Source of the DNA: Amphiscolops sp. MND2022
Lineage: Eukaryota
Assembly (NCBI GenBank): GCA_964187785.1
Contig: OZ076409.1
Span: 26,910,001 to 26,974,000, forward strand
DNA: 64,000 bases
Reading direction: 5' to 3'
Under the pieces are notes generated by a model, which was given only the letters and a program-made list of their open reading frames with translations, was not told the DNA's origin and ran no database searches. Positions 17,301 to 58,180 of the stretch are shown piece after piece. The position numbers and the translations under genes were made by a program. Numbering within the stretch: the first letter of the stretch is position 1; every line of letters begins with the position of its first letter.

Positions 17301-18294
17301 TTTTTGAATGATTTACAGAAAACAATGAACTCTGTCTTGTCAGCATTTACATTGAGACGGTGGATTGCGAAAAAATCAGAAAGTTCTTTTATGCCTTTCT
17401 GCAGATAATCAGCGCCAGTTGTAATGTCTTTAGCTGCTACAAAGAGAAAAGTATCATCTGCATACTGAACCAAGTACAAAAAAGATGAAAAAACGCAAAA
17501 CCAGAAGTTCTGATTTCATCAAAAGAAAAACAAGCTATCAAAGAAGAACCGATACAAAGAATGAATTGAATCGGAACAAGACCGAAAAGGAAAAATTTCA
17601 ATAGCCATGCGGAAATTGCAGTTTCAAACTGGTCACCACCGCACAAGTGCTCCGCATCAGAAGTCAACTGTAACAAATGCGTTAAGAAAGGACACTACGC
17701 AAAGGCATGACTGAAATTCAACATCAACGGAACAATGAAAAGATTAACCAAAAAAACAATTGAATCGAATGAGTCATCCAATGAATCGAACGAAAGCATA
17801 CACCACATAAAAGAAATCAAGAAGATCGAAAAAACAAGTAAATATTACACAGCAACAATCAAAATGAACGCAGTGAAAAAAGAATTCATAATTGATACCG
17901 GATTTCCATTAACAATAATGCCCATGGACAAAAGAAAAGTAAAACCAACCGAGATACAAAAAGTAACAACCCGATACCATGATGTAAACAAAAACGAAAT
18001 GAAACTTCGGGGGAAAATTCCGGTGGACGTAGAGTGCGAAAACAACAAACAAAATATGAAAATACAGATAACCGAAAAAACGGATAACATACCTCTGCTG
18101 GAAATGGACTGGATAGAAACATTCAAATTGACAATCGGTAAAAAACAATAAGCCAAAAACAACCAATAAGAACGCGAAAAAGTATTGAAACGATTTCCGG
18201 ATCTGTTTGAGAATCACGAAACAATAAAAAAACATCGAAATAAACATCCAACTGAATCAAAGAAAAAGCAAAACCGGTACAACTACAACTTCTA
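13151..18294. repeat. Tandem duplication with period 2578 (13151-15716 and 15729-18294) and a 12-nt junction filler
   Basis: The env, LINE-RT and gag/protease ORF pieces recur at +2578 with a few substitutions. Filler AAGAGTTCAACT at 15717-15728. Confidence 0.93.
14600..14897 (-). mobile_element. LINE RT fragment (CR1/L2-like); second copy at 17178-17475
   Basis: LVQYADDTFLF...LNVNADKTEFIVF...VKYLGVYLDRNLNY. Confidence 0.85.
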
Positions 18295-19152
18295 GAAGAT
18301 GTCGGACGGGAATTAGAAAAACTAATTCGAACCGGACAACTACAGAAAATAAACGACGTAGATCAAGACTGTTTTGAAACCCGGTCGTGATAACACAAAA
18401 TGCGACCACACATGCCAAAGATGGAAGAATTATTGAACCAAGTTTCGGTAGAAACAACCCGTGACCGTACCTTACAATCATTAATATCAAAAATAGACCT
18501 GGATTACGCATACGGACAAACGAAATTATCAGACGAAACGAGCCAACAATGCGTATCTGCAATGATCGGAGGAAATTTCAGCGGATACTACAGATTCAAA
18601 AAGGGATTTCATGGACTCGCAGATATGCCAACGACATTTCGGGAAAAGATTGACCGGACATTAGAGTTTTGTACACCTGCATGGTACGACGATATAATAG
18701 TAGTAACCCAGTGAGACAAAAAAGAACTTAAGAAAAAATGTTCGATGTCCTAAACAAGCGGGAAAAAGTCGGATACCGAGCGAGTAAAAAAATCCGAATT
18801 CTTGTTGATGAAAAAAAGGCTTGGACACGAAATAGACGGAAACGGTATAATAGCCGATTGAAAAGAAAGTAGAAGCCATAATAAAACTATAACCACCAGA
18901 AAACAAAAAAGAACTGAAGTCATTGCTCGGTGCAATACAATACTTGGAAAAATTCTTGCCCAAAATATCGGAAGACAGACCATTTGGAAACATTACTCAA
19001 AAAGAATGAACCCTGGAAATGGGGACCGGAAAAAGAAACAGATTTGAACCGGATAAAAACAAATGCTAACCGAAGCCCCATGTCTAGCTCATTACGCAAA
19101 TGACAAAGATAATATGGTAACGACTGATGCCAGCAAAATCGGAATAGGAATT

Positions 19153-22100: not shown

Positions 22101-24036
22101 CCGAAACGACCAATCACAACTGAACAGAAAAATCGAGAACAAAAACAACGTGAACAAAATAGAACAAAGCGTAAAAGTTGGACCGGAAGCCCTAATACCA
22201 AATAACGCGAGCTGAAGATAAAATGGAACTGGACACCATAAAAATTAAATATCTATTCCGATTGTTCATCGAATACTATATGTCGAAAAGAAGCACTTAA
22301 AACAACCGGGGGTTTTCTTCTGGGCGAAACAGAATTCTGGAGACAGTTAATTGAAATCAAAAAAGATTGTATATTCAACACAATCTCGGCGGAAGAACTA
22401 CTGATATCGAAGTAAATGACTGCGATAACCGATAAAAAGTTACGGTACAAAATAGTGAAAGAAAAGACACTAGAATTGAAGAAAATAATCGAACTAATAA
22501 AACAGAATACGTACGAGAAGAAGATAAAAAACACCAAACCAGAAGTTCTGGTATCATCAAAAGAAACACAAGCTATCAAGGAAAAACCGATACAAAGAAT
22601 GGAACGATTAGGAACAAGACTGAAAAATAAAGTTTTTAATAGCCGGTCATGCGGATAATGCGGTGTTTCAAACTGGTCACCACTGCACAAATGCCCAGCA
22701 TCAGAAGTAAACTGTAACAAATGCGGTAAGAAAGGACACTACGCAGAGGCATGCAGACTGAAATTCAACGACAACGGAACAATAAAGAGATTACCCAAAG
22801 AAAAAACAATTGAATCGAATGAGTCATCCAATGAATCGAACAAAAGCATACACCACATAAACAAATCAAGAAGATCGTAAAAACAAGTAAACATTACACA
22901 GCAACAATCAAAATAAACGGATTGAGAAATTAATTCATAATTGATAACGGATCTCCAATAACAATAATGCCGGTGGACAAACGAATAGTAAAACCAACCG
23001 AGATACAAAAATTAACAAACCGATACCAAGATGTGAATAAAAACAAAGTGAAATTCAAGGGGGAAATTCCGGTGGACGAAGAGTGCGAAAACAACAAACA
23101 AAAAAATGGAAATACAGATAAACGAAAAAACGGATATCACACCTCTGCTGGGAATGGACTGGATGAAAACATTCAACTTGACAACCGGTAAATCACAAAT
23201 TGCCAAAAACAACCAATAAGAACGCGAAAAAGTATTCAACCGATTTCCGGATCTGTTTGAAAATAACGAAACAATAAAACGCATCGGAATAAACATCCAA
23301 CTGAAGCTGGGACATTATCCTATCAAAAACGCAAGACCGGTACCACTACATCTACAAGAAAATGTCGGACAGCAATAAGAAAAACTAACTCGAAGCGGCA
23401 CCTAAAGAAATTAAACGATGTAAATGAAGACCGTTTTGTATCCCCGGTAGTGATAAACTGCATTGCGATAAATCGGTAAAAATCGCAATAGACTCACAAA
23501 ATTTGAAAGACAGCTGTATCGAAATGCAACCACACATGCCGAATATGGAGGAATTATTGAACCAAGTTTCGGTAGAAACAACCCGTGACCGTACCTTACA
23601 GTCATTTATATCAAAAATAGACCTGGATTACTCATACGGACAAACGAAATTATCAGATAAAACGAGCCAACAATGCGTATCTGCAATGATCGGAGGAAAA
23701 TTCAGCGGATACTACAGATTAAAAAAGGGATTCAATGGACTCGCAGATAAAGCGACGACATTTTAGGAAAATATTGACCGGACATTAGAGTATTGTACAC
23801 CTGCATGGTACGACAATATAATTGTAGTAACCCGAGAAGACAAAAAAGAACACAAGAAAAAACTCTTCGATGTCCTGAGCAAGCGTGGAAAAAGTTGGAT
23901 ACCGAGCGAGTAAAAAGAAATCCGAATTCTTCCTAATTAAAAAAAGCTTGGACACGAAATAGACGGAGACGGTATAGAACCGAGTGAAGAGAAAGTGGAA
24001 GCGATAATAAAACTAAAACCACCGGAAAACACGAAA
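19153..24036. repeat. Tandem duplication with period about 2442 inside the Gypsy array
   Basis: ORFs 19267/21709, 19974/22416 and 20524/22967 are near-identical. The junction at about 21595 fuses RT (…PPETTK) to RNase H (TFWLKQ…). Confidence 0.92.
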
Positions 24037-27000
24037 AAACTGAAGTCATTCCTCGGTGCAATACAATACATGGAAAAATTGTTGCCAAATATATTGGAAC
24101 AGAAAGGCCGGTTGAGACAGTTACTCGAAAAGAATGAACCCTGCAAATGAGGACCGGAACAAGAAGTGGAATTGAACCGCATAAAACAAAAGCTATTCGA
24201 AGGCCCTTGTCTCGCTCATTACGTAAAATACATAATACAAGATAATATGGTGACGACTGATGCCAGCAAACTCGGAATGGGAATTACTTTATGGCAAAAA
24301 CAAGACAACAGAAAAATTAAGCCGACAGGATACGGAAGTAGATATTTGAACAATACCGAAAAAAGGTATTCAATCGGTGAATTGAAACTACTAGCAGTGG
24401 TGTGGGTTTTCGAAAAATTCCGATTATATTTACACGGAAAGAGAGTTTACTTGTATACCGACAATCAAGCATTAGAATCCCTGTTAAAAAGCAACCGGTG
24501 CAATAAACAATATAGTGCATGATTATATAGTGCAATTTTACTGATCACCTTAGCCGAAATCCGGTAGGGGGAGCAGTGCTGGAAGAAAAGGCGGCGAAGA
24601 ATTTGTAAATAACATATTATCCGAACAAGCCAAACTAAACTTGAAATACGGACAACCATTCCCCGACCAATCAAAAGACAGTAAACGAACAGCGGAATGG
24701 TACATCAGAGCAAAAAAGTGAGAACTAAAACGACCAATCACAATCGAAAAGAAAATTCGAGAACAAAAACAACGTGAACAAGATAGAACAAAGCGTAAGA
24801 AGTACATCCAAAATTAGCGCTTCAAATTCAAGTCGTCTACCGCAATTGAATCCAAAAGTCACACTGAAAAAGAGAAATTGTCCAAATTAAACTCGAAAAA
24901 TACCGAAATGGACCAAGAAACTTTTTATCATCGGGGTGCGACACGGGAGATCATGGAGATAAAACGGAAGAGAAATAAAAGCCCGGAAATAAGAACACTC
25001 GTAGAGCAAAAGAATGCGTTATCAAGATCAGGAACCTTATGAAGACGATACGAACTTTCTCCCAAAGGACGATATCCGCACCTTCACGCCCAAATAAACA
25101 CAGCCGAGAGGAAATAGCAGAGATAGTCGCCGAACTGCTGCAAAACGCAAATCGACCGGGGGCGGCTACCAACAGTAAAAAATGAAATAGAGGAGACCGA
25201 AAATCCGGAAGAAGGAGAAATTGAACCCGAGCAAGTGGAAACGGATGGAGACAGCGTAATCCTACGAGGAGACAACTTGCCGATAGTGGACTGGAGCAAA
25301 TTCAACACGGAGGGCGGGGAAGCCCACTACTTTCAAATCAACCATATCGTGGGGAAGTTATCTGGTAACAAAAGAATAACCGAAGAGACAATTAAAAAGC
25401 TGAGTTTGAATTTATGCTGGACCTGGAGAGCCTGATATCATGAACGGCATTTGACCGCGAACTAACGCGAGTGAGAGCAATCATGAGACGGGAAGACAGA
25501 GAGACAACACTCGACGGATACAGGCCGGTATTCGAGAAACTCTCGACAAGATGGTGACTCGTATTCATGGACGACCAGATTGTAGTTCCGGTGTATCTCC
25601 GAAGAAGGCTACTAGACATCCTACATTTCAGTCATGCCGGGACCACGAAGATGTTGGCCGATGCAAAGGTTTTCTGGTGGCCGGAAATCAACCGAGACAT
25701 AGAAAACAAAGTCAAGGATTGCACCGCTTGCTTTGCATCAGGTAAAAGTTTGAAATACCAATTACCGAGTAACCATTACGGAAAGTTGAAAAAACTTACT
25801 GAACCGGGCCAAAAACTACAAATCGTTTTTAACTGGAAAATTACACAACAAAAAGATAAACGGCGATATACAAAAAATGATAGCGGTAGATCGATTCAGT
25901 AAATGGCAAACTGTGAAAACGTGTAAAACCGCAGAAACAAAAGAAGTCATAATTTTTTCAACGAATAATTTCAATTTATACGGAATATACGAAAAAATGA
26001 AATCCGAAAAAGGAGGAGCCTTTATATTGAAAGAATACAACGAATTTTGCAAACAGCGAAACATAGAAATCGAATACTGCACACCCCCGTTACATAGGGA
26101 AAACGGAACGGTACAAACTTTAAAAAATCTAATGCTAACAAATCTAGAAGAAATGAACGATTCAACGGAAAGTTTAAGCTGATTCCTTCTGGTGATGTGT
26201 TTCACTAAACATCCAGACTTGAAAAGAACGCCATTTGAGCTACACGACGGTAGAAATCTGAGGACCAATTCAACTAAAATATTTAAGGACGGAAAATCAC
26301 ACCTATTGGATTTGTCAGAAATATCTATGTCTGCACCTAACAAACCGAAAATCCCAATCTATGTGGGCCGTGATACGGTTAGGGAAAAACCAACCATATG
26401 GTCATGGCCAAAACAGAGACGGAGAAGCAAGCGAACGAAGGCCAAAAGTCTCCGAAGAAGAAAGTTTCGTTTAAATATCCTTTTAAATTTGTACAGAAGA
26501 ATCACAACAAAAAATCCCTAGAAGGAAAGATTTTAAAAAAATACAAACCGGTTTTGACGGAACCGAAAATTCCGTGAAAACGGGCACGGGAAAAATAATA
26601 CACCGGAAATTCATATGTTTCAGACCAAGAAAAGCAGCCGGAAGGAAACGGCAATAACAAGCGTTGAAATAACACCGAAAAACAGACATTGCCTGAGAGA
26701 GCTGAACGGGAAATACTGTCGACGGGATGAGACATCCTAAACGGCAAACTAAAGTTTGTGCAAAACAGAAAAAGAGCTGAATCAGATACCGAAAACGATG
26801 ACCATGATGCCAAAGGAGAAATGACGGAAAATACCGGAGACCGAGAACACGACACCTCAGAATGGGACGGCCGCTATGAGCCAATACGGACCAGCCCGGA
26901 GGAGGACTTAATCTAAATCTACATTAATGGCGAAATCTCACAGGGGGAGAAAATTGAAAATACAATACGGCGATCTAGCCGGATTATAAAAAAACCGAGT

Positions 27001-38360: not shown

Positions 38361-38694
38361 GGGTGGCTGTTAATAGGTCGAATTTTTCTGGTCGAACCTT
38401 TTGATCGAATTGCAGGGATCGAATGGAATGCGGTCGAATTTTATCGTATTTGTTGTATGGCTCGGTCGCTTCGCTCCCTTCGCTAAGTAGCAACATTGAG
38501 GCATGGCCATATGGCACGTCGCTCCGCTTTGCTTCGCTCCTGCATTCAGGGCACTAGTGGTATGTGAACATATCTGACCACGTTACAAAAATATCGATCC
38601 GAGTTGTTTCGATCCCATTCAAAAATTTGGTATGTCGACCTGAGGACTAACTCTGATTTTCGATCCCTTTCCTTCGACCTTTTTCCGCCTAACC
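38361..38694. mobile_element. Second copy of the GGTCGAA-arm, core A MITE
   Basis: Aligns with 3282-3632. Degenerate 9-bp TSD CCATGGTAC / GAATGGTAC. Confidence 0.82.
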
Positions 38695-39323
38695 GAATGG
38701 TACAATATCATCACAAGAGCTTGGATAATCATTGATGTATATTGGAAACAATAGCGCTCTATAATCGTTCCTTGTGGTACTGTACAATGTCGCAAACTCT
38801 ATTATAACAAATTATACATAAAACAAAAAAAAACAACCGTAAGTTTTCAAAAACTATAAACATTAAAACAAGTAATCCAGCACACTGGTTAACAGCTATC
38901 TTTAATTACACAATGAGACGTCAAACTGTCCGACATTTTTTTTACTCGCTTCAATGAACATCATAGAGAATCGCAGCCCCTCGGACAACATCTGAAAACA
39001 TGCATGGGAGGCTCAAGCAGTTACTCTTGGAAGATTATTGACACCGCAGGAGACCAAGTCATATTACAGACGCTGGAGGCACTCCACATTGACAGACGGA
39101 AACCGGCTCTAAACACCCGAGACGAATACAGACAGCGACCGTTAACCATAAAAATTTAGCCGTCCCAAACGTTATGTTTGGCTGTTAGAAGTTATGAGCT
39201 TCGATGTCTCAATGTGTAATTAAAGATAGCTGTTAACCAGTGTGCTGGATTACTTGTTTTAATGTTTATAGTTTTTGAAAACTTACAGTTGTGTTTTATT
39301 GTTTTATGTATAATTTGTTTTTA

Positions 39324-39361
39324 GAGTTTGACAATGACGGAACTGTCGAAAACGTTTACTC
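39324..39361 (+). ncRNA. Minimal type I hammerhead ribozyme, U3-A8 core variant (pLTR 1)
   Basis: GAGT-TTGACAA-T-GACG(GAAC)TGTC-GAAA-ACGT-TT-ACTC: stem I GAGT/ACTC, stem II, GAAA, palindromic loop III. Confidence 0.75.
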
Positions 39362-41252
39362 AATAGAAGTATTTTTATCACGTTTCTTATCTTTACTCTT
39401 TATGGCAACGGTGATCCTTCTCAATTTTCTTTTGAAGAAGATCCTACAAAGGCATAACATTTGGAATTGTTATCAGCACTATTGCAAACAGCTAGCAAAG
39501 CAAATTTACGCAAAGAAACGTGTCGCATTTCTAAAGGAGTGTAAAAAGAATGGTCTGGTACCAGATTTTCTAAAGTTCCGGGTTCCAGATAACAATTGTT
39601 TTGATCCCTCCTCGGTCAAGAACTTTCAGCTGAGATTGCTTTCAAAGGAGCTCCATCAGGCAATAGAAGAGGTAAAAAGAAAGGAAAACTTGCAAGATGT
39701 TATCTGCACTGAAGTGAGATAAACAACTCCTGTGCACTTATTGATATTGCGGTGAAGAAAGCCTACGGACTGCCAACTAAACCTGACATGAGAAGGTCAG
39801 TCTTTAGAAAACTTCTGGAACTTGCCGTCTGTAATGTGTATTTCAAAGCCAATGATATCTGGTATCAAAAAACTGACGGGGTGGCTATGGGTGCTTCACT
39901 GGCAGTGATCTTAGCGAACTTGTGGCTAAAGGAATACGAGCACATGATATTTTCTGAGAATCCATCTTCAAGTGACATACCAGTTAACGACAAGTGCCCC
40001 AAAAGTAGTCGAAAAGTCCTAACAAAAAACAGAGGTATTGAATGTGATCGATGCCAATTTTGGTTTCATGGTCGGTGCGCGGGCATTTCCAACAATGAGT
40101 TAGATGATTGGCCAGAATCAAGAGAATGGCACTGTACACATTGTCTTGGCTCGGACAGTATGTATGCAGCGCCTAGAATCGGTCTCAGTAATGTAGATGA
40201 TGTCCTCCGCACAAGTAGAGAATCACCAGATACAATTCTACAGAAAAGTAATCAACTACACCCAAATCTGGAATTCACAATCGAGCTTCTGGACCAAGAG
40301 AGGGCTATAGTGTTCCTTGATATGAAGATTTGGCGCAAGAATAACGGGCTCTTGGTGACGGAATGGTATAGAAAGCCTTCGGACACAGACGTGCTGTTGA
40401 ATTATCGTAGCTGTGCACCTTTGTCGATTAAAAGGAACCTTATTCAGGGAACAGTCCATAGAATATTTAACGCAACATCCTCATGGCCAGCAGTTGATGA
40501 AGCGCTGACAACTTGTAAGAATGTTTGGAAGAAGAACCAATATCCGGAAGAGTTTACTGATGCTATCGTGCTAGATACCCTCGAGAAATGCAGAGAGAGA
40601 TATTCCAACAGTGTTGGAAATGCACACAGGGACAAGGAAATAAAGAAAGACCACTTTATTATTCAGTACAGGGGGCGGGTTACTGATCAATTTGTTCAAA
40701 AACTCAGAAAACTCATACCAATACAGCCGATTTTTACAACGAACAAACTGAAAAACCTATTGCCGAGTTTAAAGAGTGGGTTCTCTAGAATGTTAAAAAG
40801 TAGAGTAGTATATGCAATGACATGTTCTGGGTGCAAGCTCAGCTATGTTGATCAAACTGTCCGACATTTTTTACTCGCTTCAATGAACATCATAGAGAAT
40901 CGCAGCCCCTCGGACAACATCTAAAAACATGCATGGGAGGCTCAAGCAGTTACTCTTGGAAGATTATTGACACCGCAGGAGACCAAGTCACATTACAGAC
41001 GCTGGAGGCACTCCACATTGACAGACGGAAACCGGCTCTAAACAACCGAGACGAATACAGACAGCGACCGTTAACCATAAAAATTTAGCCGTCCCAAACG
41101 TTATGTTTGGCTGTTAGAAGTTATGAGCTTCGATGTCTCAATGTGTAATTAAAGATAGCTGTTAACCAGTGTGCTGGATTACTTGTTTTAATGTTTATAG
41201 TTTTTGAAAACTTACAGTTGTGTTTTATTGTTTTATGTATAATTTGTTTTTA

Positions 41253-41290
41253 GAGTTTGACAATGACGGAACTGTCGAAAACGTTTACTC
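41253..41290 (+). ncRNA. Minimal type I hammerhead ribozyme, U3-A8 core variant (pLTR 2)
   Basis: Identical to 39324-39361. Confidence 0.75.
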
Positions 41291-43180
41291 AATAGAAGTA
41301 TTTTTATCACGTTTCTTATCTTTACTCTTTATGGCAACGGTGATCCTTCTCAATTTTCTTTTGAAGAAGATCCTACAAAGGCATAACATTTGGAATTGTT
41401 ATCAGCACTATTGCAAACAGCTAGCAAAGCAAATTTACGCAAAGAAACGTGTCGCATTTCTAAAGGAGTGTAAAAAGAATGGTCTGGTACCAGATTTTCT
41501 AAAGTTCCGGGTTCCAGATAACAATTGTTTTGATCCCTCCTCGGTCAAGAACTTTCAGCTGAGATTGCTTTCAAAGGAGCTCCATCAGGCAATAGAAGAG
41601 GTAAAAAGAAAGGAAAACTTGCAAGATGTTATCTGCACTGAAGTGAGAGAAACAACTCCTGTGCACTTATTGATATTGCGGTGAAGAAAGCCTACGGACT
41701 GCCAACTAAACCTGACATGAGAAGGTCAGTCTTTAGAAAACTTCTGGAACTTGCCGTCTGTAATGTGTATTTCAAAGCCAATGATATCTGGTATCAACAA
41801 TCTGACGGGGTGGCTATGGGTGCTTCACTGGCAGTGATCTTAGCGAATTAGTGGCTAAAGGAATACGAGCACATGATATTTTCTGAGAATCCATCTTCAA
41901 GTGACATACCAGTTTACGACAAGTGCCCCAAAGGTAGTCGAAAAGTCCTAACAAAAAACAGAGGTATTGAATGTAATCGATGCCAATTTTGGTTTCATGG
42001 TCGGTGCGCGGGCATTTCCAACAATGAGTTAGATGATTGGCCAGAATCAAGAGAATGGCACTGTACACATTGTCTTGGCTCGGACAGTATTTATGCAGCG
42101 CCTAGAATCAGTCTCAGATATGTAGATGATGTCCTCCGCACAAGTAGAGAATCACCAGATACAATTCTACAGAAAAGTAATCAACTACACCCAAATCTGG
42201 AATTCACAATCAAGCTTCTGGACCAAGAGAGGGCTATAGTGTTCCTTGATAAGAAGATTAGGCGCAAGAATAACGGGCTCTTGGTGACGGAATGGTATAG
42301 AAAGCCTTCGGACACAGACGTGCTGTTGAATTATCGTAGCTGTGCACCTTTGTCGTTTAAACGGAACCTTATTCAGGGAACAGTCCGTAGAAAATTTAAC
42401 GCAACATCCTCTTAGCCAGCATTTGATGAAGCGCTGACAACTTGTAAGAATGTTTGGAAGAAGAACCAATATCCGGAAGAGTTTACTGATGGTATCGTGC
42501 TAGATACCCTCGAGAAATGCAGAGAGAGATATTCCAACAGTGTTGGAAATGCACACAGGGATAAGGAAATAAAGAAAGACCACTTTATTATTCAATACAG
42601 GGGCGGGTTACTGATCAATTTGTTCAAAAACTCAGAAAACTCATACCAATATAGCCGATTTTTACAACGAACAAACTGAAAAACCTATTGCCGAGTTTAA
42701 AGAGTGGGTTCTCTAGAATGTTAAAAAGTAGAGTAGTATATGAAACGACATGTTCTGGGTGCAAGCTCAGCTATGTTGGTCAAACTGTCCGACATTTTTT
42801 ACTCGCTTCAATGAACATCATAGAGAATCGCAGCCCCTCGGACAACATCTGAAAACATGCATGGGAGGCTCAAGCAGTTACTCTTGGAAGATTATTGACA
42901 CCGCAGGAGACCAAGTCACATTACAGACGCTGGAGGCACTCCACATTGACAGACGGAAACCGGCTCTAAACACCCGAGACGAATACAGACAGCGACCGTT
43001 AACCATAAGAATTTAGCCGTCCCAAACGTTATGTTTGGCTGTTAGAAGTTATGAGCTTTGATGTCTCAATGTGTAATTAAAGATAGCTGTTAACCAGTGT
43101 GCTGGATTACTTGTTTTAATGTTTATAGTTTTTGAAAACTTACAGTTGTTTTTTATTGTTTTTTGTATAATTTGTTTTTA

Positions 43181-43218
43181 GAGTTTGACAATGACGGAAA
43201 CGTCGAAAACGTTTACTC
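43181..43218 (+). ncRNA. Minimal type I hammerhead ribozyme, U3-A8 core variant (pLTR 3)
   Basis: GAGT-TTGACAA-T-GACG(GAAA)CGTC-GAAA-ACGT-TT-ACTC; stem II is perfect and capped by a GNRA loop. Confidence 0.8.
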
Positions 43219-43499
43219 AATAGAAGTATTTTTATCACGTTTCTTATCTTTACTCTATTATAACAGATCGTAAAATGTGTAGATGTATTTTTAAAGTGTC
43301 ATTTTATTTCAGAGGATCATTGTATGAAATAAATGTTTTATTAACAATGTTTCTACAAAGAGAGGTTTCTATATGATTCTCTGTTCTCAGTAAGTGGACG
43401 AGCAACTTCTGCAATCTACAAAGATCCTGCAAACAAGGAACATTTACCCTTTTCCCGTCAGTTTGTTCCTTTGCATCTTATTCCTAACAAAGCCTGAAC

Positions 43500-45830
43500 T
43501 GGATCGGAGCTACAATTGTATCGCTCATGAATATCACCTCGTAGTATCACGTGTCGTGTGCTTCAAGCGTATTCTTTTTATTTGTCCCTAAAGTATCACG
43601 TATCGTGTGCTTTAAACCAGTTCTATATCTACCTTGCTAGCATCACGTATCGTGTGCTCCAAGCAGAAAAAAACCAGTGAACGTGTCCGCCAGCCATAGT
43701 GGTGCTCAATTGCCCCATTGAACGATGTACCTACGACACGGGGGATATCGAAGCGGCTCAAGCCATCGCACTTTTCACGGTGCACGGATATTCACATGCC
43801 CCCGGCGCCTGTCAACCGGCGAAACCAGACAAATTGTCTCGCCCAAAAGTGTCTAAAGAGAGTACGAGTGAAGACTGGGAGTACTTCATCACCAGATGGG
43901 ACGCCTACAAGACAGCCACACGCATAGCCAACCATGATGCCACCTTACAGCTCCTCGAATGTTGTGAAGACAGTCTACGCAAGGACCTCCACCGCTCTCA
44001 CTCAAACATCGTCATGGCAACCGAGATAGACGCCCTGACAGCAATCAAGACTCTAGCCGTGAAGGCTGAGAACGCCATGGTGAGCAGGATGACTCTCCTG
44101 ACAATGACACAGGACAGAGAGGAGGGTGTTAGGAGCTTTGCCGCTCGCTTACGAGGTCAAGCTAAGATCTGCAAGTTCTCAAAAAACTGCTCTCACAACC
44201 CACTTGAAGCAGTTAATTACACTGACGACATGGTCTTTGACAATCTCATTAGAGGACTTGGCGACAGCGACATGCAACAAGATGTACTGGGACATAACGA
44301 CCAGGACATGACCCTGGAGGACACGATCAAGTTTATAGAGGCCAAAGAAGCTGGTAAACGATCACAAGCAACTCTCTAGAACCCGAGTGCTGCGACAGTA
44401 TCCTCGTATAAACAGACGGACAAAGACCAACACGTAGTCAAATGCCGAAATTGTGGAAAGCCATGCCATGGGGATGGCCGCGATACACAGGCTAGGAAGG
44501 AGAAATGCAAAGCCTCCGCTCGCTGCTCAGGAACCAGTTTAACCCTTCCAGTGCATCTGTGCGGATAACTTCAAATACAAGGGCTGCAATTACATGGTGG
44601 TTGTGGACCGCTTTTCTGGTTGGCCGATTGTGCAGCAATCACGAGATGGTTCTTCAAGTCTTGTAAAATGCCTATGCGAAATGTTTGTTACATACGGCAT
44701 TGCGCGGCATTGCAGACGAACTATCGTCAGATGGTGGACCTGAATTCACGGCCGAGGAGACACAACATCTGTTGTCAAACTGGGGTGTCCATCACCGCAT
44801 CTCATCTGTTGCACTTGCCCACTAAAATGGTCGCGCCGAGCTCGGGGTCAAGACCTGCAAGCGCATGCTCATGGACAACACTGGCCCGAACGGCGAGATC
44901 AACCTCGACAAATTTCAAAGAGGCATGCTTCAATACCGCAACACCCCTGACCGCGATACCGGTTTATCCCCAGCACAAATGATCTTTGGACGACCTATAA
45001 AGGACTTCATCCCCATTCTGCCTGGTTCATACAGACCTCACAACACCTGGATAGAAACATCACGGGCCAGGGAAGAAGCAATGCGTGCTAGAAATGTCAG
45101 AAATGCTGAACGCCTCACCGAACACACAGTACGGTTACAACCCCTTAAAGTTGGGGATTGGGTCTTTATCCAGAACCAGACAGGTAACCATCCACTGCGA
45201 TGGGATCGAACCGGCACTGTGATCGAGGTGAAACAATTCAAACAGTACGCCGTCAAAGTTGATGGATCGGGCAGAGTTACTCTCCGGAATCGGAAATTTC
45301 TACGGAAATTCGACAAGATCGTTGTGGACCACATACCCGGTACTACCGGCACCATCCAACCTTTGAAAACTCTCAACAACGCCGAGAATCGGTCTCCGGT
45401 GAATCAACGAACCAACTCAGAACAGGCACAAGATCCACCTAAAGCAAAGCCGCAACCGGAAACAAAGCGTCAAGTTCTGACCGGTGCACAGTTTATACAA
45501 CACCCCCAGAGGCAAACTGTCCCATATTCCCCCCAGAGACACCGGCAGTTACAATCAAAGCCCCACTCAAGTTCAATTGCCCACCAAATGAGTCCCTCGG
45601 AGATGAGAACAAGCCTTTGCTGGACAAAGATATCATGCCCCACATCATTTCTGCTGGATCACCCGACAAGGAGTCCAGATGTTTTGATAAACGCAATGAA
45701 ACTGGATCACCCAACGAGTCACCTCTAGCAAAGACCCCCCCGGATAACCCACGGACTCCCCCCAGACGGTCCCAGAGAGAAAAGCGACCCCCTGTGAGAC
45801 TTGGGGACTACATTTCATTGTGACAGTCCT
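43500..45830 (+). mobile_element. Internally deleted Ty3/Gypsy element (gag joined to integrase; protease, RT and RNase H missing)
   Basis: Gag 43699-44510 (CPIERCTY, WEYFITRW, Q..EEGVRSFAARLR, CRNCG..H...C). Integrase pieces from about 44520 (PFQC, VVVDRFSGWP, SDGGPEF, LQYRNTP, RNRKFLR) and a PRRSQR..RL.DY tail. Three GTATCACGT(A/G)TCGTGTGCT leader repeats at 43543-43660. Possible degenerate tRNA-Met PBS TGGATCGGAGC at 43500. Confidence 0.82.
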
Positions 45831-45883
45831 CCCCGATCTACTACGATCAGTTCTACCTACCTACCGACCAGTACCTACGACAA

Positions 45884-47215
45884 TAGGGAATGCAAACTCA
45901 AGTCAAGTAGTTTGACGCAAACTCAAACTACTGTCGTTCAAACTCAAACTCAAACTATTAAGATCCTTAATTTCAAACTCAATCTCAAACTCAAACCCAG
46001 ATTAAAGGACAATCGAGCCCTACCTTATAATTATAGGAACTATTTAATGGAAAATGTCCTAATATTTCAGACGTCGACATGAATGAAGTCGAGGTGATTG
46101 CAGCCCGCGATGATGTCAGCCCGTCTCTTTGTAATGAGACAGAACACAAGTTGCCCGTAGTGGATAAATCATCCAGTAAAGCAATCGCTCACTTGTCTTC
46201 GGGCAACAAGTTCGAAATTGAACTAGTGCAATAAGTTCGACTGGAATAATTTCGAGACAACAAGTTCAAAATTTCATATCGGGCATATCCGGTGTAAACT
46301 GGACATCCTTCACACAAGATCCTGAGAGCTCCACCGCCTAGGATCTAAAGGAATCTGAAAACTGAAATGTTGGGCATACCCGGTGTATGCACGCTCGCCC
46401 TCACCGTCGCAAAGAACAGCTCCCACAACGTTCGCTTCGCGATCTCCGTTCCCGCAAGGTCTTTGCTCCTGTTCGACCTTGCTTAACAAGACGGGAACAT
46501 AAGCGGCCCCAAGGGGCAACGGGGCACTAGATGAAATGGGGTAATATCAGTGACACGTTTTATACTTAGTCCAAAATTCGAACACAGTGACTCGAACTTG
46601 TTCCTGTTTTTGGAAAATTCGAACTAAGTCCATTCGAAATTAAAATTAGAACTTATGGGTTCGAACTTATTAGCGTGCCCCGCTCACTTTTATGTCGAGT
46701 ATTGCAACGGAAGAAAACCGGAGTCCCGAAAATGCTTGAAATGTGGAGAAAGGCTTAAGTGTCCAAACGCTGGTACAAGTTCTCTTCATCGTCATCACAA
46801 TTTGTGCTCCAAAAACGCTCTCAGAAACGACCAAATGAAATCCATGATGAAGAATTTTAGGCCAACAAGTGCAGACACTGAGCGAGTGTTTTCACTCGCA
46901 AGAATTTCCAAGATTTTTGCAAAATCGCATGTCACCCGGCAATGTTTTTATCAATAAAAATACATCACTGTTGTATTGAATTTGTACGTTTTTGATTGTT
47001 TCAAATTTTGACCAATTGAGCGTTTTGAGGTTTGATCACTTGAACGTTTTGACTAAGCTGTGTTTTGACATGTGGTAGACAGAGAAATATGGGTGTTCCT
47101 CACAAACAGAAGTCCGAACAAAATTAACGGTCCACAACTAACTCCATCTAAGCTCAAACTCAATCTATAATAAGTCATGGGTTGGCGTCAAGTTCAAACT
47201 CAAACTCAAACCCTG
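45884..47215 (+). mobile_element. Internally deleted hAT DNA transposon with CAAACT subterminal repeats
   Basis: TAGGG...CCCTG ends. BED finger CLKC...LHRHH and hAT dimerization motif PTSADTERVFS. No convincing TSD. Confidence 0.7.
46195..46680. mobile_element. Mutator-like MITE with CAAGTTCGA arms and core B, inserted in the hAT ORF
   Basis: 9-bp TSD CGCTCACTT at 46186-46194 and 46681-46689. 46369-46562 is the reverse complement of 3023-3212. Confidence 0.85.
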
Positions 47216-49853: not shown

Positions 49854-50706
49854 TGTAACGGCTGCTTGATCCCTTCACTTGACCAAACTTTACGCCGCCC
49901 TGAATTCGGTGCTCGGCACTGCGGATCGTTACCGAACACTGCTTGCTTCTTAGATTAAAAGGACTGTATCGTGACTTAGTAGGATCCATTGATCCCGAAT
50001 TGCACTTCTTCTTTGTCTCTTAACACGTCCAACTCTCCACAAGTTGAGAGTAACTAACTCAGTCGCCCTAAGTCTTTGGCGAAAAGTCAAAAAGAGGTAA
50101 AGAAATGAATGGAAATGTGAAATGGTCCTCAGACCCAACTTGAATACAGCTTTCCAATCAATTTGTGCCTATCTAGTTATGGTATTCATATCGTTTACAA
50201 TTATTCGATAAAGATGAGTTGAAATATGAAGTATAAATAAATGATGTTTAGGTGAATTATTAGAGTTTTTGGCTATGTAAACAAAGCATAGTGTGGGTAT
50301 AGCATGTTGGTTAGGTGGGCTCTAAAGCATGTTTACACAATGTAAATATCATCAATTGCAACAGAGTTACATTCTAATGCGGTCATATAGGTAAATACAA
50401 AGTTTACATTTTTGGTTCACTGACCTTGAACACCACACATGTGGAGGGTAAAGGGGGTTATAGTGGATGAATGACCTTGAAATTTCGCCGGTGTGTTTGT
50501 GTTAGGTACTTGCGTATGTGTGCAAAGCTTCATGTCTCTAGTGTTAATAGTCGTCGAGAAAACTCCGACTGGGGGGGGTTCGCCGACTTTTTCCCCCTCG
50601 ACTTTTCATCAAAATTTCTTCTAAGTTTCTATGAGTTTAATTTCTTGTTTCTCAACCAACATGTTTAAAATCAACTTTCTTTGCCTGCAGATGACTGGCG
50701 CCAACA
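49854..50706 (-). repeat. BEL/Pao 3' LTR (853 bp)
   Basis: Direct repeat of 57452-58180 with about 125 extra bp at about 50482-50608. Confidence 0.92.
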
Positions 50707-53700
50707 TTGCCGGCCCTGTTTTTCTCCCGAAAAACACTTTCATAGAACAGAGGTGCCAGTTTCACTACTGGTCTTTAGAGTTTGCCATCTTTTGTCACAA
50801 CTGTCGCAGCTCTGACTCTGCCATCGCTTCCTTCTTGCACCTCCAATACTCTCGCCATCTTGTAGTTGGACCGCTTCACATTTTCATCCACGACCCAAAC
50901 CAAATCGTTGACTTTCAGCAGTCTCACGTCATCTTTGTTCCATTTATTACGCACATTACTTTCCGGCAGATATTCTTTAGTCCATCTGGTCCAGATCATA
51001 TCTGAATAAGCTTGCGACACTCGAAATATTCGCCTCAAAGCTGTGTAACGTTGAGCGTCTGGTAGGAACGGTGTGGCTAAATTAGCTCTTTCCATTAAGA
51101 AATGATTTGGTGTCAAAGCTTCCAAGTCATCTGGATCATCACTAACACTTGTCAGTGGTCTAGCATTCAACGTCTGCTCTACTAGGCACATAGTTGTTAT
51201 GAGACCGTCGTCTGTCAAGGATCGTCCATCCAATACCGCTATCATCGCTTTTTTACAACTTCGTACCAATCGTTCCCAGATTCCTCCAAAATGAGGGGCT
51301 TCAGGGGGGTTGAATTTCCGCTTGATGTCTTTTTGAGCTAGCGACGTCTCAATGTCTGACTGATTCCATGCATTTATACAATCTCTCATTTCTTTAGCTG
51401 CACCCACGAAGTTCGTCCCATTATCGCTCAGAATTGTAGCAGGTTTGCTTCTCCGGGCAATAAAACGTGTGATAGCAGTTAAGCAGGTTTCTGCTTCCAA
51501 AGATGGAACAACTTCAATGTGTACAGCTCTAGTCGTCAAACATGTAAAGAGGCAACACCATCTCTATATGTTCTTACGCATAAACTTCACTTCAAAGGGA
51601 CCAAAATAGTCAACTCCAGTGTTGGTAAAGGGGAATACTCGTTCCTGCAATCTCTCTTGTGGTAAATCAGCCATAAATGGTTGAGACACTCCAGCTCGTT
51701 GCTTTCTAAAATTAAACACATTTCGCTTTGACGTTCCTCAAAGCGTTTCGCAATCCAATAATCCAGTATTCTTGCCTCAGAACTTTCTGACGTATTCTGT
51801 ACCTTCATGAACATTCGCTCGATGAGCATCTTCAATCAACTCGATGACTACATAGTGCTTTGCTGACAACAAGATCGAGTTTGACCTCATAACTTGATCT
51901 TGAATGCTGCAGTCGGCCATCTAGTCGCAGCAATCCATTTTCAACCAGAAACGGCGATACTTTATTCAGTTGATGTGATGCCGGCAACGGCTGCCCTTTA
52001 AAGATCTTCTCGTAGGCATCATGAAATTTTTCTTTCTGACAACGTTTCAAAATTGCCAGCTTTGCCGCATTGAGTTCTTCAACTGTCAGAATTTCTCCAG
52101 AATTCCTGTTCTTCCATCTTAGGCAGTATGAGAGCACTCGAATCATTTTCTTGAAAGACCCAAATCTTTCCCATTCGAATGAGGGTTCCATTACAGCAGC
52201 ATCCATGACTGGTTCTTGCTCTTCTTGAATGCTGAATCGCAATTTTTCAGGCGCCTTAGGCCAAGCGTCCTCTGTCTCGGTAAGCCACGCCCGCCCTGTG
52301 AGCCACTCACTTTCTTTTAGGGCTTCTACTATCATTCCTCGAGTTCCAATGTCAGCAGGATTCAGTTTTCTTTCAACGTGTCGCCATTGGTCTATAATTG
52401 AATTTTCGAGGATCTCTGCGACTCTGTTCGCTACAAAGACCGGTTGCTTGTTGTTGCTTGCCTGAAGCCATTGTAGGATCGTTGTTGAATCTGTCCAGTG
52501 TACGATTCGGTCTACTTCAATATCGTGTTCTTCCAAAAAGAGTTCACGCAGTCTCACTCCAAAGACTGCTGCCTGCATCTCCAACTTAGCCACTGTCATG
52601 TTCCTAATTGGAGCTACTCTACATTTTCCGATGACAAAGGTCACTTCGCCATTGTCTTGTTTTCTCAAATAAGCAACCATACACATTGCTTCCAACGAAG
52701 CGTCAGAGAAGATATGTAGATCAACTTTGTTCACTCCAGACTCGAAGTATGTTCTTTTAAGGACCATTTGATTCACATGAATCATCTCCGATGCCCAATT
52801 TTTTGAATTCATGTCGATTTTCTTCATTCAATTCTTTATCCCACGACTGTCCGTTCTCCTTCCATATTGATTTCAGTAGCAGTCGCATTCTTATGGTGAA
52901 AGGAGACACTATTCCCAGAGGGTCGAATACAGCTGAAACATGGGATAACACCGCTCTTTGCGTTATCTTCACCGGTATCTCCTTCTGCATGCCTCTGCAG
53001 ACTTCCAGATTGTCTGCGTCAACGTTCCATTGCAGTCCCAAGATTGATGGAGAAGTCGGTTCAGCTTCGAAGGTTTTACTAGAGGACGGTGACTTGTCTG
53101 CTTGGTCGATAGACTTCATAGTCTGTTCGCAGTTGCTAATCCATTTTGTTAAGTGAAAGCATCCCTTTACTAACATCGCTCTCAACATATTGTAGATTCC
53201 AATAGCTTGCTCAGCGCTGGGAACAGACTTAACAAAGTCATCCATATAGATGTTTTGCATTATCAGTTTAGTAATTTGTGGGGACTCCTGTGCATTATCT
53301 CTTGCAACTTGTTGCAGAGCATAATTGGCGCAAGTTGGCAAACTTTTGGCTCCAAAAATATGTCTTCCATACTCATACACTTTACCGGGTTCATTTTGAT
53401 TGTCTCTCCATAGAAATCGCAACACTTTACAATCTTCCGGCGGTACTTTCACTTGTAGGAACATCGCCTCAATGTCAGCAGTGATGGCAATCTTTTGTTC
53501 TCTAAACCTGAAAATTGTTCCAATCAGATTCTGTAGTAGCTCCGGCCCCGTCAAGAGGTTATTGTTCAAGGAAACTCCACGGAATTTGGAAGCTGCGTTG
53601 CACATTCGCTTCACTTTTCCCAGTTTGTTTGGATTTTCTACTGGGTGATGTGGAACATACCATTGTCTTTCCAATTTTGTAGCTTCTAATTCTTCCTGCT

Positions 53701-56700
53701 TTAGGATTCTGACGAATTCCTTCTCAACATCTACTTTAATAGTGTCTTGATAGAGTTTCTTCAACTCCGGTTTCTTTTCGAGTGTATACTCTAACGACTT
53801 CATTTGGCTCAATGCCGAAGAAAAATTGTTTGGCAAGAAGGGGTCATTTCTTTTCCAGAGGAGTCCAACTTCGTATCTTTCACCATCAAACTTCGTGGTT
53901 TGTTCTAGCATCTGCAACGCTTTCTCGTCGTCCTTGGACCTTCCCGATACATCACAGCGGGATGCGTAGGATTCAATGTCCTACCAAGTTTTAATCTGTT
54001 CTGCCAGCACATCACCTTCGGAAGCTGTAACGCAAGATGCAGTCATCTGCACAGCCTTTTGTTGTGGAAGTGGTCCACAGAGAGTCCATCAAAGTTTCGT
54101 TTTCACTGCACAAGGCTCACCATTCGTGCAGCTTTTATGTTCTACAGGCCGATGTATATGATAGCAGTTTTGTCCCAAAATCATTTTTACATCTTTGAGT
54201 TTCAATGTTTCTTCGCTTAGAACCGACAAATGGGGATAGGCAAGTTTGAGCTCCTGATAGTTGTAGATCTTTGTTCCGGCGTCTATGTTTGGATGAGTGT
54301 AAACTGTCATGTGGTGTGTGTCGCTCATTGCCTTGCCACGAATTCCCATAGTGAATCGTTCACATTTCACATCATTTGTCCCATGTATTCCAGCCACACT
54401 CAGGTCAATTTCTTCCCTGTGAGCATTTAACTTGTCAGCTTAACTTCTTGTCTATGAACGATAGGCTCGCTCCAGAGTCACACAACGCCACGGTCGATTC
54501 TTGTTTTTTTTTTCAAATTGGATGATGATAGGTATAACGGGTAGAATTCCACTGCTCTTTATTGGGCAAAATGCAGAGTTCGCCTCCGCCTTCTGTTGTG
54601 GGTCTTCCGGTCCGCTTCCTTTCTGCCGATCATGTGTCTCGCGGTGTAGCAGTCGATGGTGCCGTCTGTTACAACCTTTGACTCCACAAGCTTTGTACGT
54701 GCAGTCTTTCACTACATGTTTCCCAGCCAAACAAAAAAAGCAGAGTTTCATCTTTTTGACTTTCTCGTATCGCGCTTGACATGTCATCTTCAGAAACTTC
54801 TCGCATTTCCACAAAAGATGTTTACCATCTCTCGAAAGACAATCTTGACCAGTCTTCTTGTCGGAATTGTCGTCAGCGAAAGTTGAGAAAGTAGAGTTCT
54901 TTGGTTTGTCTTTACTTGTCCATTTCGATTTGTCGGCGTTGGGATTGCCTGTCATGAGAACATCTTTCTGCACCGCTGCTACCTCTTGCAACTATAAGCT
55001 GAATGCTTCCAGCCCCATGAAGTAATTAGCATTTTGTCTCGCGTGCGCCAACCATTTCGTCTTCATGTTCATTGGCAATTTTCTGGTCGCACTACTCAGG
55101 ACGCTTTCTGACTGCAAGTCGCCAACATAGTTCATCTGCGACAGAACTTGTACACAACTTGAAACTATTCTCGAGTATTTGACCAATGCTACGGAGTCGT
55201 ACGCCTTCACTGGCGGAAAGGTGTATATTCGTCTCAATTGTGCGTTAACCACCACTTGTAGTCTTCCAAAGTGCGCGACCAAGGTATTCCAAGCAATATC
55301 ATACATGTCTCCGGTGTTGCCTAGTCCAGCTATCACTTCTTTCGCTTTCCCAGTGACCAGCGTTTTGAGATGATTCATCTTCAAGCTGGCGTCAATGTTT
55401 GCAGCGTGCACGGTCGAGAGGAACAACCCGGACCACTCAGGCCATTCCAATGGGTCGCCTGAGAAATCTGCTAGCTTCAGCTTCGGCAAACTGGCTTGTA
55501 GGCTCACTGCTCCATTTCTTGTTGTCGCGAACTGACTCTGTATGGGGGCAGAGTATTCAGCTGAGGGTGCTACTGGTGGTGGCAAGGTGCCACTTCTCGT
55601 TTGGTTACTTAATATTGGTTGGTTTGGAGATTCGAAGTTCCCAAACTGCACATGCTGTTGAAATGTCTCATTCAGTTGCATCTTCGCTGATGCAGCGTTC
55701 GGCATGAATTGACTGGCCGACGTGCCATCCTTTACCATGGTCGGCTGCGTTGTTTTAGCAGCCAGGTGGGACATTTGCGTTGTGTGTAGCAAAGGGTCAG
55801 GTTGTGGTTTGATAGGTTTGTTGGCCAGTGCGATTTTGGATACCTCTTCTCCAAACTTCGTTGTTCTTTCGTCACATCCATTTTCATCAAGCCAAGAAGG
55901 AACATTTTCAAACGGATCGCTCTGGATGGGTATTGGCGAGATGCTTTGCAAACTTGTGCTTGCTCTGCTTCCATCCGCCCGAGCGATTTGCATTTCCTTC
56001 TCTGCGATTCGTTTAGCCCTTGCCTTCCACTCTTGGAGTTTAGCAATTTCGAGTTCTTCTGTGAGTTTATCCATTTCCTCGTGTTTCTTTCGGATCTCGG
56101 CTTGGCGTTTCTTTGCAGCTAGTTGTTCATCAATTTATTCTTGTTTCTTCATTGCTTCCAGTTCTAGGAGCATCACTCGCTTTGTGGTAGTTGACTTTGA
56201 ACTAACTGATGTTCTGTTGCCCTTTGAATGGGCCTTGCTTGCACACTGATGTCTTTCTTCAGGTAGCGAATTCACCTCAGTAACACAACGATTCTCAAAC
56301 GAATAGGGTCTATCGGTACCTTGTGCCAGCTCTTCATTCGCATTTTTCTGAGTAGATGTGTCGCGGGACTTTAGTTGTTGCTCTTGACAATTCACCCTGG
56401 CACGGGCCATGATTCCCTCCATACGATGCAGCTCACTGTAGATTGAAGTATCTCTACTGTGTTTCAACAACTCATCCATCTCGGCCACAATTTCATATCT
56501 CCTTTTGAGGGTTTTTTCGTTTGTTTCTACCAATGCTTTGTAATCCTCTGTGTTGCAAAGAGTGTCCCGATTTTTATTGATTTCATTTCCGTTTTTTTTG
56601 AAGCATTTCATCACATTTCTCTTTGGAGTTTTGAAGTTGTAGGAACTCCTTCAACTGTCCTTCTTTCTTTAGGCTCCTCATCTTTGTGAGCATCTGACTA

Positions 56701-57049
56701 ATGTTTTTATGTTGTGTTTCCAAGGAACCCAATTCATTCCGATATCTGCAGAATCGGTCGCCTTTATTATCCGCCCATTCTGGCTGATACTTGACTTTCA
56801 AGAGTGCTGTGTTCGCCCCCGACGAGTCTCTTCCATCTAGGCAGTAGTTCTTGTCGGTTCGGTAGAAGGTCTGCGAGTTTTTCCTTCGTTACGTCTGCTT
56901 TGCGCAGCTCAGCATGTATTTCATCCACTTTTGCCTCAAAGTTTTGAGTTGCTCTCATGTTGCTCTTCCATTGTGGCTTGTCGATAGATCTCTTCAAATA
57001 GTTGTCAATTCTTTTGTAATCAATTCTCTTAGGTTCAACCATTTTGAAC

Positions 57050-57250
57050 TAGCCCAAAACCCCAGAGTACACTAACTAACCACAGGAGTCCAAATTCTGC
57101 TGTGAATACAATTCCCAACAAGCCGATGAAGTAGCCCAAAACCCCAGAGTACACCTTATACCCAAGAGCTCCAGTAATACCACTGCGAATAAAATCTCCC
57201 AGAGACTGCAGAAGTAGCCCAATCCCCAGAGTACACAATACACCCAGGAT
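57050..57250. repeat. Degenerate 82-bp tandem repeat in the BEL leader
   Basis: CCCAGAGTACAC at 57061, 57143 and 57225, each preceded by TAGCCCAA. Confidence 0.7.
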
Positions 57251-57451
57251 AGCCCGGCTGAGACCACTTTGCTGCACACACAGTTTTGTATAGATCACCA
57301 CCAGTCGTCGTTCACTGTACAGTCGTTCGCACAGTGCTGTTCTGGCTGTGTAGCAATCAGATGATCATCCAGTTGTCCACCCAATTGATCATGTGCGCCC
57401 CAAAACTGATGATAACCGCCCAATTGATTATGTCCGGGTCGGCGGACCAAA

Positions 57452-58180
57452 TGTAACGGCTGCTTGATCCCTTCACTTGACCAAACTTTACGCCGCCCTG
57501 AATTCGGTGCTCGGCACTGCGGATCGTTGCCGAACACTGCTTGCTTCTTAGATTAAAAGGACTGTATCGTGACTTAGTAGGATCCATTGATCCGAATTGC
57601 ACTTCTTCCTTGTCTCTTAACACGTCCAACTCTCCACAAGTTGAGAGTAACTAACTTAATCGCCCTAAGTCTTTGGCGAAAAGTCAAAAAGAGGTGAAGA
57701 AATGAATGGAGAATTGAAATGGTCCTCAGACCCAACTTGAATACAGCTTTCCAATCAATTTGTGCCTATCTAGTTATGGTATTTATATCGTTTACAATTA
57801 TTCGATAAAGATGAGTTGAAATATGAAGTATAAATGAATGATAAAGAGGTGAATTATTATAGTTATTGGCTATGTAAACAAACCATAGTGTGGGTATAGC
57901 ATGTTGGTTAGATGGGCTCTAAAGCATGTTTACACAATGTAAATATCATCAATTGCAACAGAGTTACATTCTAATGCGGTCATATAGGTAAATAACAAAG
58001 TTTAAATTTTTGGTTCAATGACATTGAACACCACACATGTGGAGGGTAAAGGGGGTTATAGTGGATGAATGACCTTGAACCTTCAAAATTTCTTCTAAGT
58101 TTCTATGAGTTTAAGTTCTTGTTTCTCACCCAACATGTTCCAAATCAACTTTCTTTGCCTGCAGATGACTGGCGCCAACA
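57452..58180 (-). repeat. BEL/Pao 5' LTR (729 bp)
   Basis: Followed on the minus strand by TT and the PBS. Confidence 0.92.

Follow-up and report, generated by a model that had tools for sequence, protein, structure and literature searches.

The window analyzed here, a 64,000-nucleotide stretch of contig OZ076409.1 from Amphiscolops sp. MND2022, contains a Penelope-like element (PLE) whose reverse transcriptase (RT) is interrupted by a PHD finger. This locus raises two questions: whether the finger is an accident of one copy or a lasting part of a PLE lineage and, in the latter case, what it does inside a catalytic domain. The initial annotation, made from the letters of the sequence, had proposed a possibly undescribed architecture in which the RT/GIY-YIG protein of a PLE lineage carries a chromatin reader.

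Both stretches that had been read as PHD fingers translate as described. They occupy, in frame, the interval separating RT motif B' from motif C, and the codons reported for the second zinc ligand are those present in the DNA (Table 1). PF00628 scores 29.8 bits (E 6e-7) on the isolated finger of unit 1 and 25.3 bits in unit 2, against a cut-off of 24; a relaxed PHD spacing pattern occurs twice in the window and in none of 100 triplet shuffles. Whereas the window copies lack ligand 2 of the C4HC3 set, relatives have all eight, and cysteine stands at ligand 2 (C-P-K-C) in all four other genome copies that span the start of the finger (L003-L006). The identification of a Penelope-like element with an RT and, C-terminally, a GIY-YIG endonuclease was borne out as well. 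The RYVDD form of motif C holds for unit 2 but not for unit 1, which reads SNVDD.

Table 1. Features of the PLE insertion in the window (positions count from the first letter of the window).
Feature	Position	Strand	Remarks
Left target-site duplication (TSD)	38796..38809	+	14 bp; 14-mer recurs at 43252-43265; first 5 bp also match the 3' end of the element
Right TSD	43252..43265	+	Copy of the left 14-mer
Inverted truncated pseudo-LTR piece, 5' tip	38793..38919	-	First bases overlap the TSD; inverted repeats I2-I4; blastn vs L012
Upstream 5'-truncated unit	38920..39400	+	GIY-YIG end plus pseudo-LTR (39148-39400)
Hammerhead-like motif in pseudo-LTR (putative)	39324..39361	+	Variant core UUGACAA; recurs at 41253-41290 and 43181-43218
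Unit 1, internally deleted nonautonomous PLE	39401..41329	+	1929 bp; ATG at 39402; deletion junction near 39739/39740
RT motif B', unit 1	39875..39925	+	
PHD finger, unit 1	39995..40144	+	Pygopus-type; ligand 2 is Ser (AGT)
RT motif C, unit 1	40187..40201	+	Degenerate (SNVDD)
GIY-YIG endonuclease region, unit 1	40805..41088	+	CxxC...H...H; frameshifted
Unit 2	41330..43256	+	Same deletion as unit 1; endonuclease 42733-43016; last pseudo-LTR 43005-43256
PHD finger, unit 2	41924..42073	+	Ligand 2 is Gly (GGT)
RT motif C, unit 2	42116..42130	+	RYVDD

The element spans ~38793-43256 and consists of an inverted pseudo-LTR piece, a 5'-truncated unit, and two 1.93-kb units that are 98.1% identical to each other. 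Relative to the copy L012, ~880 bp is missing from both units, and RT motifs 1, 2, and A are gone; the 26-mer across the deletion junction is confined in this genome to the window locus, where it is present twice. Frameshifts lie in or upstream of the endonuclease in both units, and a TAG stop interrupts the B' helix of unit 2 (41849-41851). Because of the shared deletion and the frameshifts, neither unit can encode an active RT. The insertion is a dead, decayed, nonautonomous derivative, and the absence of motifs 1, 2, and A suggests that it was likely mobilized in trans. In intact relatives, the region homologous to the unit 1 endonuclease matches PF01541 weakly. L012 itself is divided into two frames of 343 and 561 aa, and none of the fetched window-family copies is fully intact; a sister family has intact 880-aa ORFs (P0161 and P0163). 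Two other copies have TSDs of ~11 bp, compared with 14 bp at the window locus.

The hammerhead-like motif of the window family is flanked in the same manner as a canonical CTGATGA...GAAA motif, which a regular expression retrieved at 6 of the 9 other PLE loci, 5 with the finger and 1 without it. An Rfam scan returned no hammerhead match, and the window-family motif, with its variant core, is putative only; terms for a variant hammerhead core appeared in no paper retrieved by our literature search. Compared with CUGAUGA in other families, two of the changes in the window core would preserve the 3-8 pair of the hammerhead numbering.

Several other features share the window. A dispersed repeat at 38390-38689 also lies within 6 of 7 window-family loci, 11 of 40 other PLE loci, and 2 of 15 LINE loci among those fetched; since these loci differ in size, it is at most a hint of a shared insertion context. 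An HP1-like frame (9359-9838, plus strand) runs uninterrupted over a chromo and a chromo-shadow domain. LTR-retrotransposon remnants occupy 13100-24800, 43600-46000, 50000-57900 (minus strand), and 60100-63500; they comprise tandem Gypsy-like blocks (2.4-2.6-kb spacing), minus-strand BEL/Pao sequences (Peptidase_A17, RVT_1, and DUF1759), and a further Gypsy-like RT. The 5' part of a LINE lies at 1458-2879 (minus strand); its ORF1-like frame, in which a Cys/His cluster resembles part of a PHD, precedes the start of an APE-like endonuclease.

To place the finger within the wider PLE family, we measured the segment between motifs B' and C across genome, database, and metagenome sequences. A protein search of the genome gave at least 152 matches. 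Forty loci were fetched from the genome matches listed; of the 27 that were measurable, 22 have a long segment and 5 have one of 38 aa. Among 157 database proteins, 100 were measurable: the segment is 37-51 aa in 90 and 105-123 aa in 10, and all 10 of the latter contain a PHD finger. A profile search added 111 new proteins (11 with the insert, 97 short, and 2 unparsed), with one further apparent carrier, P0314, removed from the count as a regular-expression mis-parse. Eighty metagenome loci yielded 1 carrier, 64 short segments, and 15 that could not be parsed; that carrier shares 92% identity with a database member already known and thus adds nothing to the host range. A wider range is possible, since the HMMER search covered the best 150 of 14,901 hits. 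Overall, the segment is 100-131 aa in the PHD-bearing clade.

When the 125 long segments were pooled and clustered at 80% identity, 27 clusters resulted, of which 14 include fetched genome loci and 13 are database-only. A full ligand set is present in a member of 24 clusters (23 with C4HC3 and one ending in His) and absent from 3, and the eight ligands are invariant in all 17 rows of the alignment. The insert is therefore a lineage-wide, conserved one, occupying the same site in every cluster, as the initial annotation had supposed. The PHD-bearing database matches are all ENA records; the named relatives Rotaria and Clytia lack the insert. PHD-bearing database proteins share 54-83% identity with the closest of the fetched genome loci, and several pair with families of this genome at 74-83%. 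Those that pair in this way were not seen intact among the genome matches listed, from which we infer that at least one other, related host carries members of the clade.

Trees were built with the insert columns dropped. In IQ-TREE, which used 55 of 123 rows after near-duplicates, unmeasurable rows, and most distant PHD-less rows were left out, all 24 PHD-bearing rows form one clade (support, 100/99). FastTree, run on 117 rows, likewise placed all 26 PHD-bearing rows in one clade (support, 0.999). Since the PHD-bearing RTs make up one branch and PHD-less PLEs fall outside it, even with the insert left out of the comparison, the sequences point to a single gain of the finger as the simplest reading. 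No loss was found among the 24-26 rows of the clade, in searches seeded with PHD-bearing queries.

A search for intact copies, which the initial annotation had called for, was successful: in PHD-bearing families there are ORFs that are intact over 849-905 aa and include both motif A and Y[VM]DD. Profile scans of six ORFs of 851-891 aa gave RVT_1 and GIY-YIG matches in all and a PHD match in five at an E value of ≤0.05. In PHD-bearing proteins, the RVT_1 match ends before motif C (profile positions to ~141-144 of 205), and for this reason the insert breaks annotation. Dispersed PHD-bearing copies are 98.1-99.8% identical, which, together with the intact ORFs, indicates recent spread with the finger in place. 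A PHD-less family (L056) has also spread in this genome, with copies ~98% identical; Penelope elements as a whole can thus move without the finger. One contig of 39 kb (G000:C1820; L033-L045 and L142-L143) is a head-to-tail array of a single PHD-bearing PLE family with a period of 2743 bp, and several of its units have open 853-aa frames; similar tandem copies occur at C3:18.94 Mb.

Selection on the finger was gauged between families. In seven pairs, finger pS is 0.61-0.94, near saturation, and finger pN is 0.19-0.46, compared with pN values of 0.27-0.36 in the RT flanks and 0.45-0.63 in the linkers. Protein identity in seven pairs is 49-88% for the finger, 57-90% for the RT, and 15-63% for the linkers; between P0001 and P0161, for example, identical residues number 43 of 50, 213 of 279, and 13 of 30, respectively. 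Within-family dN/dS estimates (10 pairs) were discarded because there were few changes and because frameshifts had raised the RT counts of L030/L065, L031/L049, and L062/L072. In all, these data establish a finger that lies in frame, has a single origin, keeps its ligands in 24 of 27 clusters, and is encoded by intact ORFs in recently spread families.

With respect to type, the finger most resembles that of Pygopus. Searching PDB chains with a profile of the clade's fingers gave Pygopus as the top nine hits (44-48 bits; next, 36.6), and precomputed labels assign most members to PF27108 (PHD_Pygo). Atlas look-ups, at 0.76-0.77, fell below the lead threshold of 0.9 and served only for the PF27108 name. 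In Pygo1, the K4me2 cavity has walls formed by W366, Y341, and D352 and a base formed by V350 and A356, and mutation of W366, V350, or A356 abolishes or strongly reduces H3K4me binding (PMC2726290). The positions aligned to V350, A356, and W366 hold V in 22, A/S/G in 23, and W in all 24 of the PLE fingers. The Tyr wall and Asp lip are mostly missing: the Y341 position is aromatic in 6 of 24, the D352 position is acidic in 2 of 24, and an acidic residue follows ligand 3 in 6 of 24. Relative to Pygopus (PDB entries 2vpe, 2xb1, and 3zpv), the PLE finger thus agrees in overall sequence and in the V, A/S/G, and W residues at the K4 pocket but mostly lacks the Tyr wall and Asp lip, is basic in most families, usually ends in a CxC ligand pair, and has no known BCL9-like partner. 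Net charge is +4 to +11, with an R/K-rich first loop, in 15 of 24 fingers; the other 9 are near neutral or acidic (to -8), and the window family stands at +1. Because single-sequence matches were to BPTF, a full aromatic cage of the BPTF/ING type was also considered, but none of 33 rows has an aromatic residue just ahead of ligand 1, and the idea was dropped.

Structure prediction was consistent with an independently folded insert. The finger model (pLDDT 78) matched PHD-containing chains in all of the top 24 VIA-align rows, with a modest best Z score of 6.2 (below 8); Pygopus came first, on a par with BPTF and others (Z 6.2; rmsd 4.2; 59 aligned). In an AlphaFold2 model of the 561-aa frame (pLDDT 87), confidence is lower over the finger region (66-87), which sits between the helix of B' and the strand of motif C. 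The best PDB match of this model is TERT, with a low whole-model Foldseek TM-score (0.3) that speaks for an RT-like fold only. The finger is predicted to fold as its own domain and to leave the RT fold intact. By analogy with RT structures, this loop would lie away from the active site.

We favor, tentatively and with slightly less than even confidence, a reading in which the Pygopus-type PHD finger of this lineage binds the H3 tail and tethers the RT-endonuclease to nucleosomes. A single PHD domain, likely from LINE ORF1 or a Pygopus gene, would have been captured into the surface loop after the B' helix, with variable linkers on either side. The ribonucleoprotein would then be anchored on H3 by the pocket made of Trp, Val, and a small residue, the one that receives methylated K4 in Pygopus. 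Such anchoring would concentrate the GIY-YIG nickase locally on chromatin or influence where it nicks. Target-primed reverse transcription would follow, giving partial-tandem insertions with TSDs of ~11-14 bp. The chromatin-reader role proposed in the initial annotation is plausible, although the pocket is partial, the predicted H3 binding weak, and the charge strongly basic in most families. A bolder version, in which the RT palm of an animal Penelope clade contains a functional reader of H3K4 methylation that steers target-primed insertion to marked chromatin, with families retuned from acidic to basic, is possible but doubtful.

When the intact finger of the window family was modeled in complex with unmodified H3(2-32), the score was 0.41, against 0.01 for the best control, a weak result for one family's finger with peptides outside the calibration. 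Contacts agreed in at least 76% across runs, partner pLDDT was at least 53, and no alignment was used. In calibration, 51 of 78 solved pairs passed the mark, as did 2 of 108 mismatched ones; for eukaryotes, the corresponding figures were 71 of 105 and 2 of 126. Scores of ≤0.60 comprise only 5 of the 78 solved pairs yet all 4 passing mismatches of 180. The score represents a small shift, since its band is more often wrong than right and peptides were not calibrated, and the pass may stem from PHD-H3 complexes that have already been solved. Against tethering to H3 stand the incomplete Pygo pocket, the strongly basic charge of most fingers, and the presence of the same V/small/W pattern in LINE ORF1 PHDs of this genome, which may make it structural for the subtype. 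The binding site of H3-reading PHDs is mainly negative (PMC10124903).

That basic charge leads to the main rival, which we regard as rather unlikely: a finger that binds nucleic acid, either the element RNA or pseudo-LTR or the target DNA, and so aids priming, processivity, or template jumps. Its attachment to the RT itself would suit such a role, as would the R/K-rich first loop, and there is precedent (PMC5861402) in the sequence-specific binding of DNA by the cross-brace finger of piggyBac and in the DNA or RNA binding of BRPF PHD2 and the PHF6 PHD. However, the charge is not conserved across families, the window family included, whereas the Trp/Val/small-residue pocket is. Less probable again is a protein-protein module with a nonhistone partner, such as a second RT in a dimer, a cofactor of the host bound at the back of the finger in the manner of BCL9 on Pygopus, or a decoyed silencing factor. 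BCL9 HD1 does bind a separate face of the Pygopus PHD (PMC2726290), a Poseidon-clade protein is predicted to dimerize (PMC11167929), and the wide variation of surface charge between families is what changing partners would produce, but conservation falls on the histone pocket and zinc core rather than on the loop-2 face.

We give little credence to a tolerated passenger that has no ligand and stays folded only because an unfolded insert would destabilize the RT palm. Purifying selection on the ligands and core aromatics would also be expected from folding alone, and surface residues do vary; however, deletion would restore the ancestral 38-aa linker, and yet the clade rows recovered with PHD-bearing queries show no loss, and in three close pairs the finger is conserved at least as well as the RT (0.86-0.88 versus 0.76-0.90). 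The chance of a one-off capture or artefact at the window locus, which the decay of its copies and their lost ligand 2 might suggest, is negligible given the same site in 27 clusters from this genome, database proteins, and one metagenome contig.

Pygopus sequences score 47-52 bits on the PLE finger profile, compared with 33-49 bits for ORF1 PHDs of this genome, and LINE ORF1 is a plausible donor by sequence resemblance. A finger tree (38 rows by 58 columns) left 22 of 35 branches open; the PLE fingers do not form one supported group, and the tree does not decide between LINE ORF1 and Pygopus. Many LINE families in the genome have an ORF1 with an N-terminal Pygopus-like PHD (L119, L127-L133, L135-L137, L139, and L141), some in many near-identical copies, and a Pygopus-like exon is also present. 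Among other loci fetched, L092 and L094 are tandem histone clusters that repeat every ~3.63 kb. Their H3, which we take to be H3.3-like, carries Ser at residue 31 and is unusual over residues 87-90. These clusters, the HP1-like frame, and the Pygopus-like exon point to an animal as the likely host.

Among described PLEs, the element fits Penelope/Poseidon by its features under criteria taken from PMC8557442; the trees are composed of uncurated relatives. Shared traits are a single ORF, DKG, RT, a C-terminal GIY-YIG with CCHH, the lack of a zinc finger in the linker, pseudo-LTRs, partial tandem arrangement, an inverted tip, and a putative hammerhead-like motif; the difference is a B'-C segment of 37-51 aa in Penelope/Poseidon versus the longer, PHD-containing one found here. 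In the alignment, PFDKG is present, and motif A to B' measures 60-62 aa in PHD-bearing and PHD-less rows alike. Most rows have a CxxC between the two GIY-YIG motifs plus two His (one Cys is Ser in L053); PF01541 matches are mostly below the cut-off. The CX2-5CxxC linker finger that marks Neptune, Nematis, and Naiad (PMC8557442) is absent from 23 rows, save two regular-expression matches on the endonuclease's own cysteines. The window locus itself has pseudo-LTRs, partial tandem units, an inverted 5' tip, and a TSD.

The closest precedent is Chlamys of Chlamydomonas, in which, according to Craig et al. (2021; PMC8557442), five families contain a PHD, three between RT2a and RT3 and two in the endonuclease. 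As here, the PHD lies inside a PLE RT/endonuclease polyprotein, and its function is putative in both. Chlamys elements, however, belong to green algae and have an N-terminal endonuclease without CCHH and an insertion-in-fingers domain, whereas the present clade, with its 27 clusters, has a C-terminal CCHH endonuclease, no insertion-in-fingers, and its PHD between B' and C. The Naiad/Chlamys hallmarks (N-terminal endonuclease, CxC, and insertion-in-fingers) were not found in our elements, where the endonuclease is C-terminal and A-B' spacing is ordinary. The differing site and architecture, with Chlamys compared by description, suggest that the two insertions arose independently. Our literature search, which covered sources other than subscription journals, Repbase, Dfam, and bioRxiv supplements, found no description of a B'-C PHD insert or of an animal case with a C-terminal endonuclease; the portion available of PMC11167929 contains no mention of PHD, and in bioRxiv 10.64898/2026.07.22.740005 the term denotes only a fellowship. 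The claim of an undescribed architecture therefore stands in part: what is new is the site, the clade, and the depth of conservation, while a PHD in the PLE RT itself was already known from Chlamys.

Outside PLEs, a PHD of the same subtype is reportedly found at the N terminus of CR1-type LINE ORF1 proteins, but there it is on the separate ORF1 protein rather than inside the catalytic RT domain. Chromodomain integrases of chromoviruses, which are LTR elements with a DDE integrase and a C-terminal reader whose targeting is experimentally supported, offer an analogous fusion of a reader to an integration enzyme, a functional analogy for the proposed reader role of the PLE finger. The presence in one genome of a PHD-bearing clade and PHD-less relatives, both with young copies, makes a direct comparison of their target choice in chromatin possible, with intact ORFs usable for biochemistry. 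The B'-C loop of a telomerase-related RT evidently tolerates a folded insert of 60-90 residues, which is useful for RT engineering; should the bolder, chromatin-steering version hold, it would be a natural docking site for targeting domains. That PLE RTs apparently gained PHD fingers independently, once in this lineage and also in algae, would suggest repeated selection for an RT-borne reader, and the same version would make the clade the equivalent, among endonuclease-RT elements, of the chromodomain integrases.
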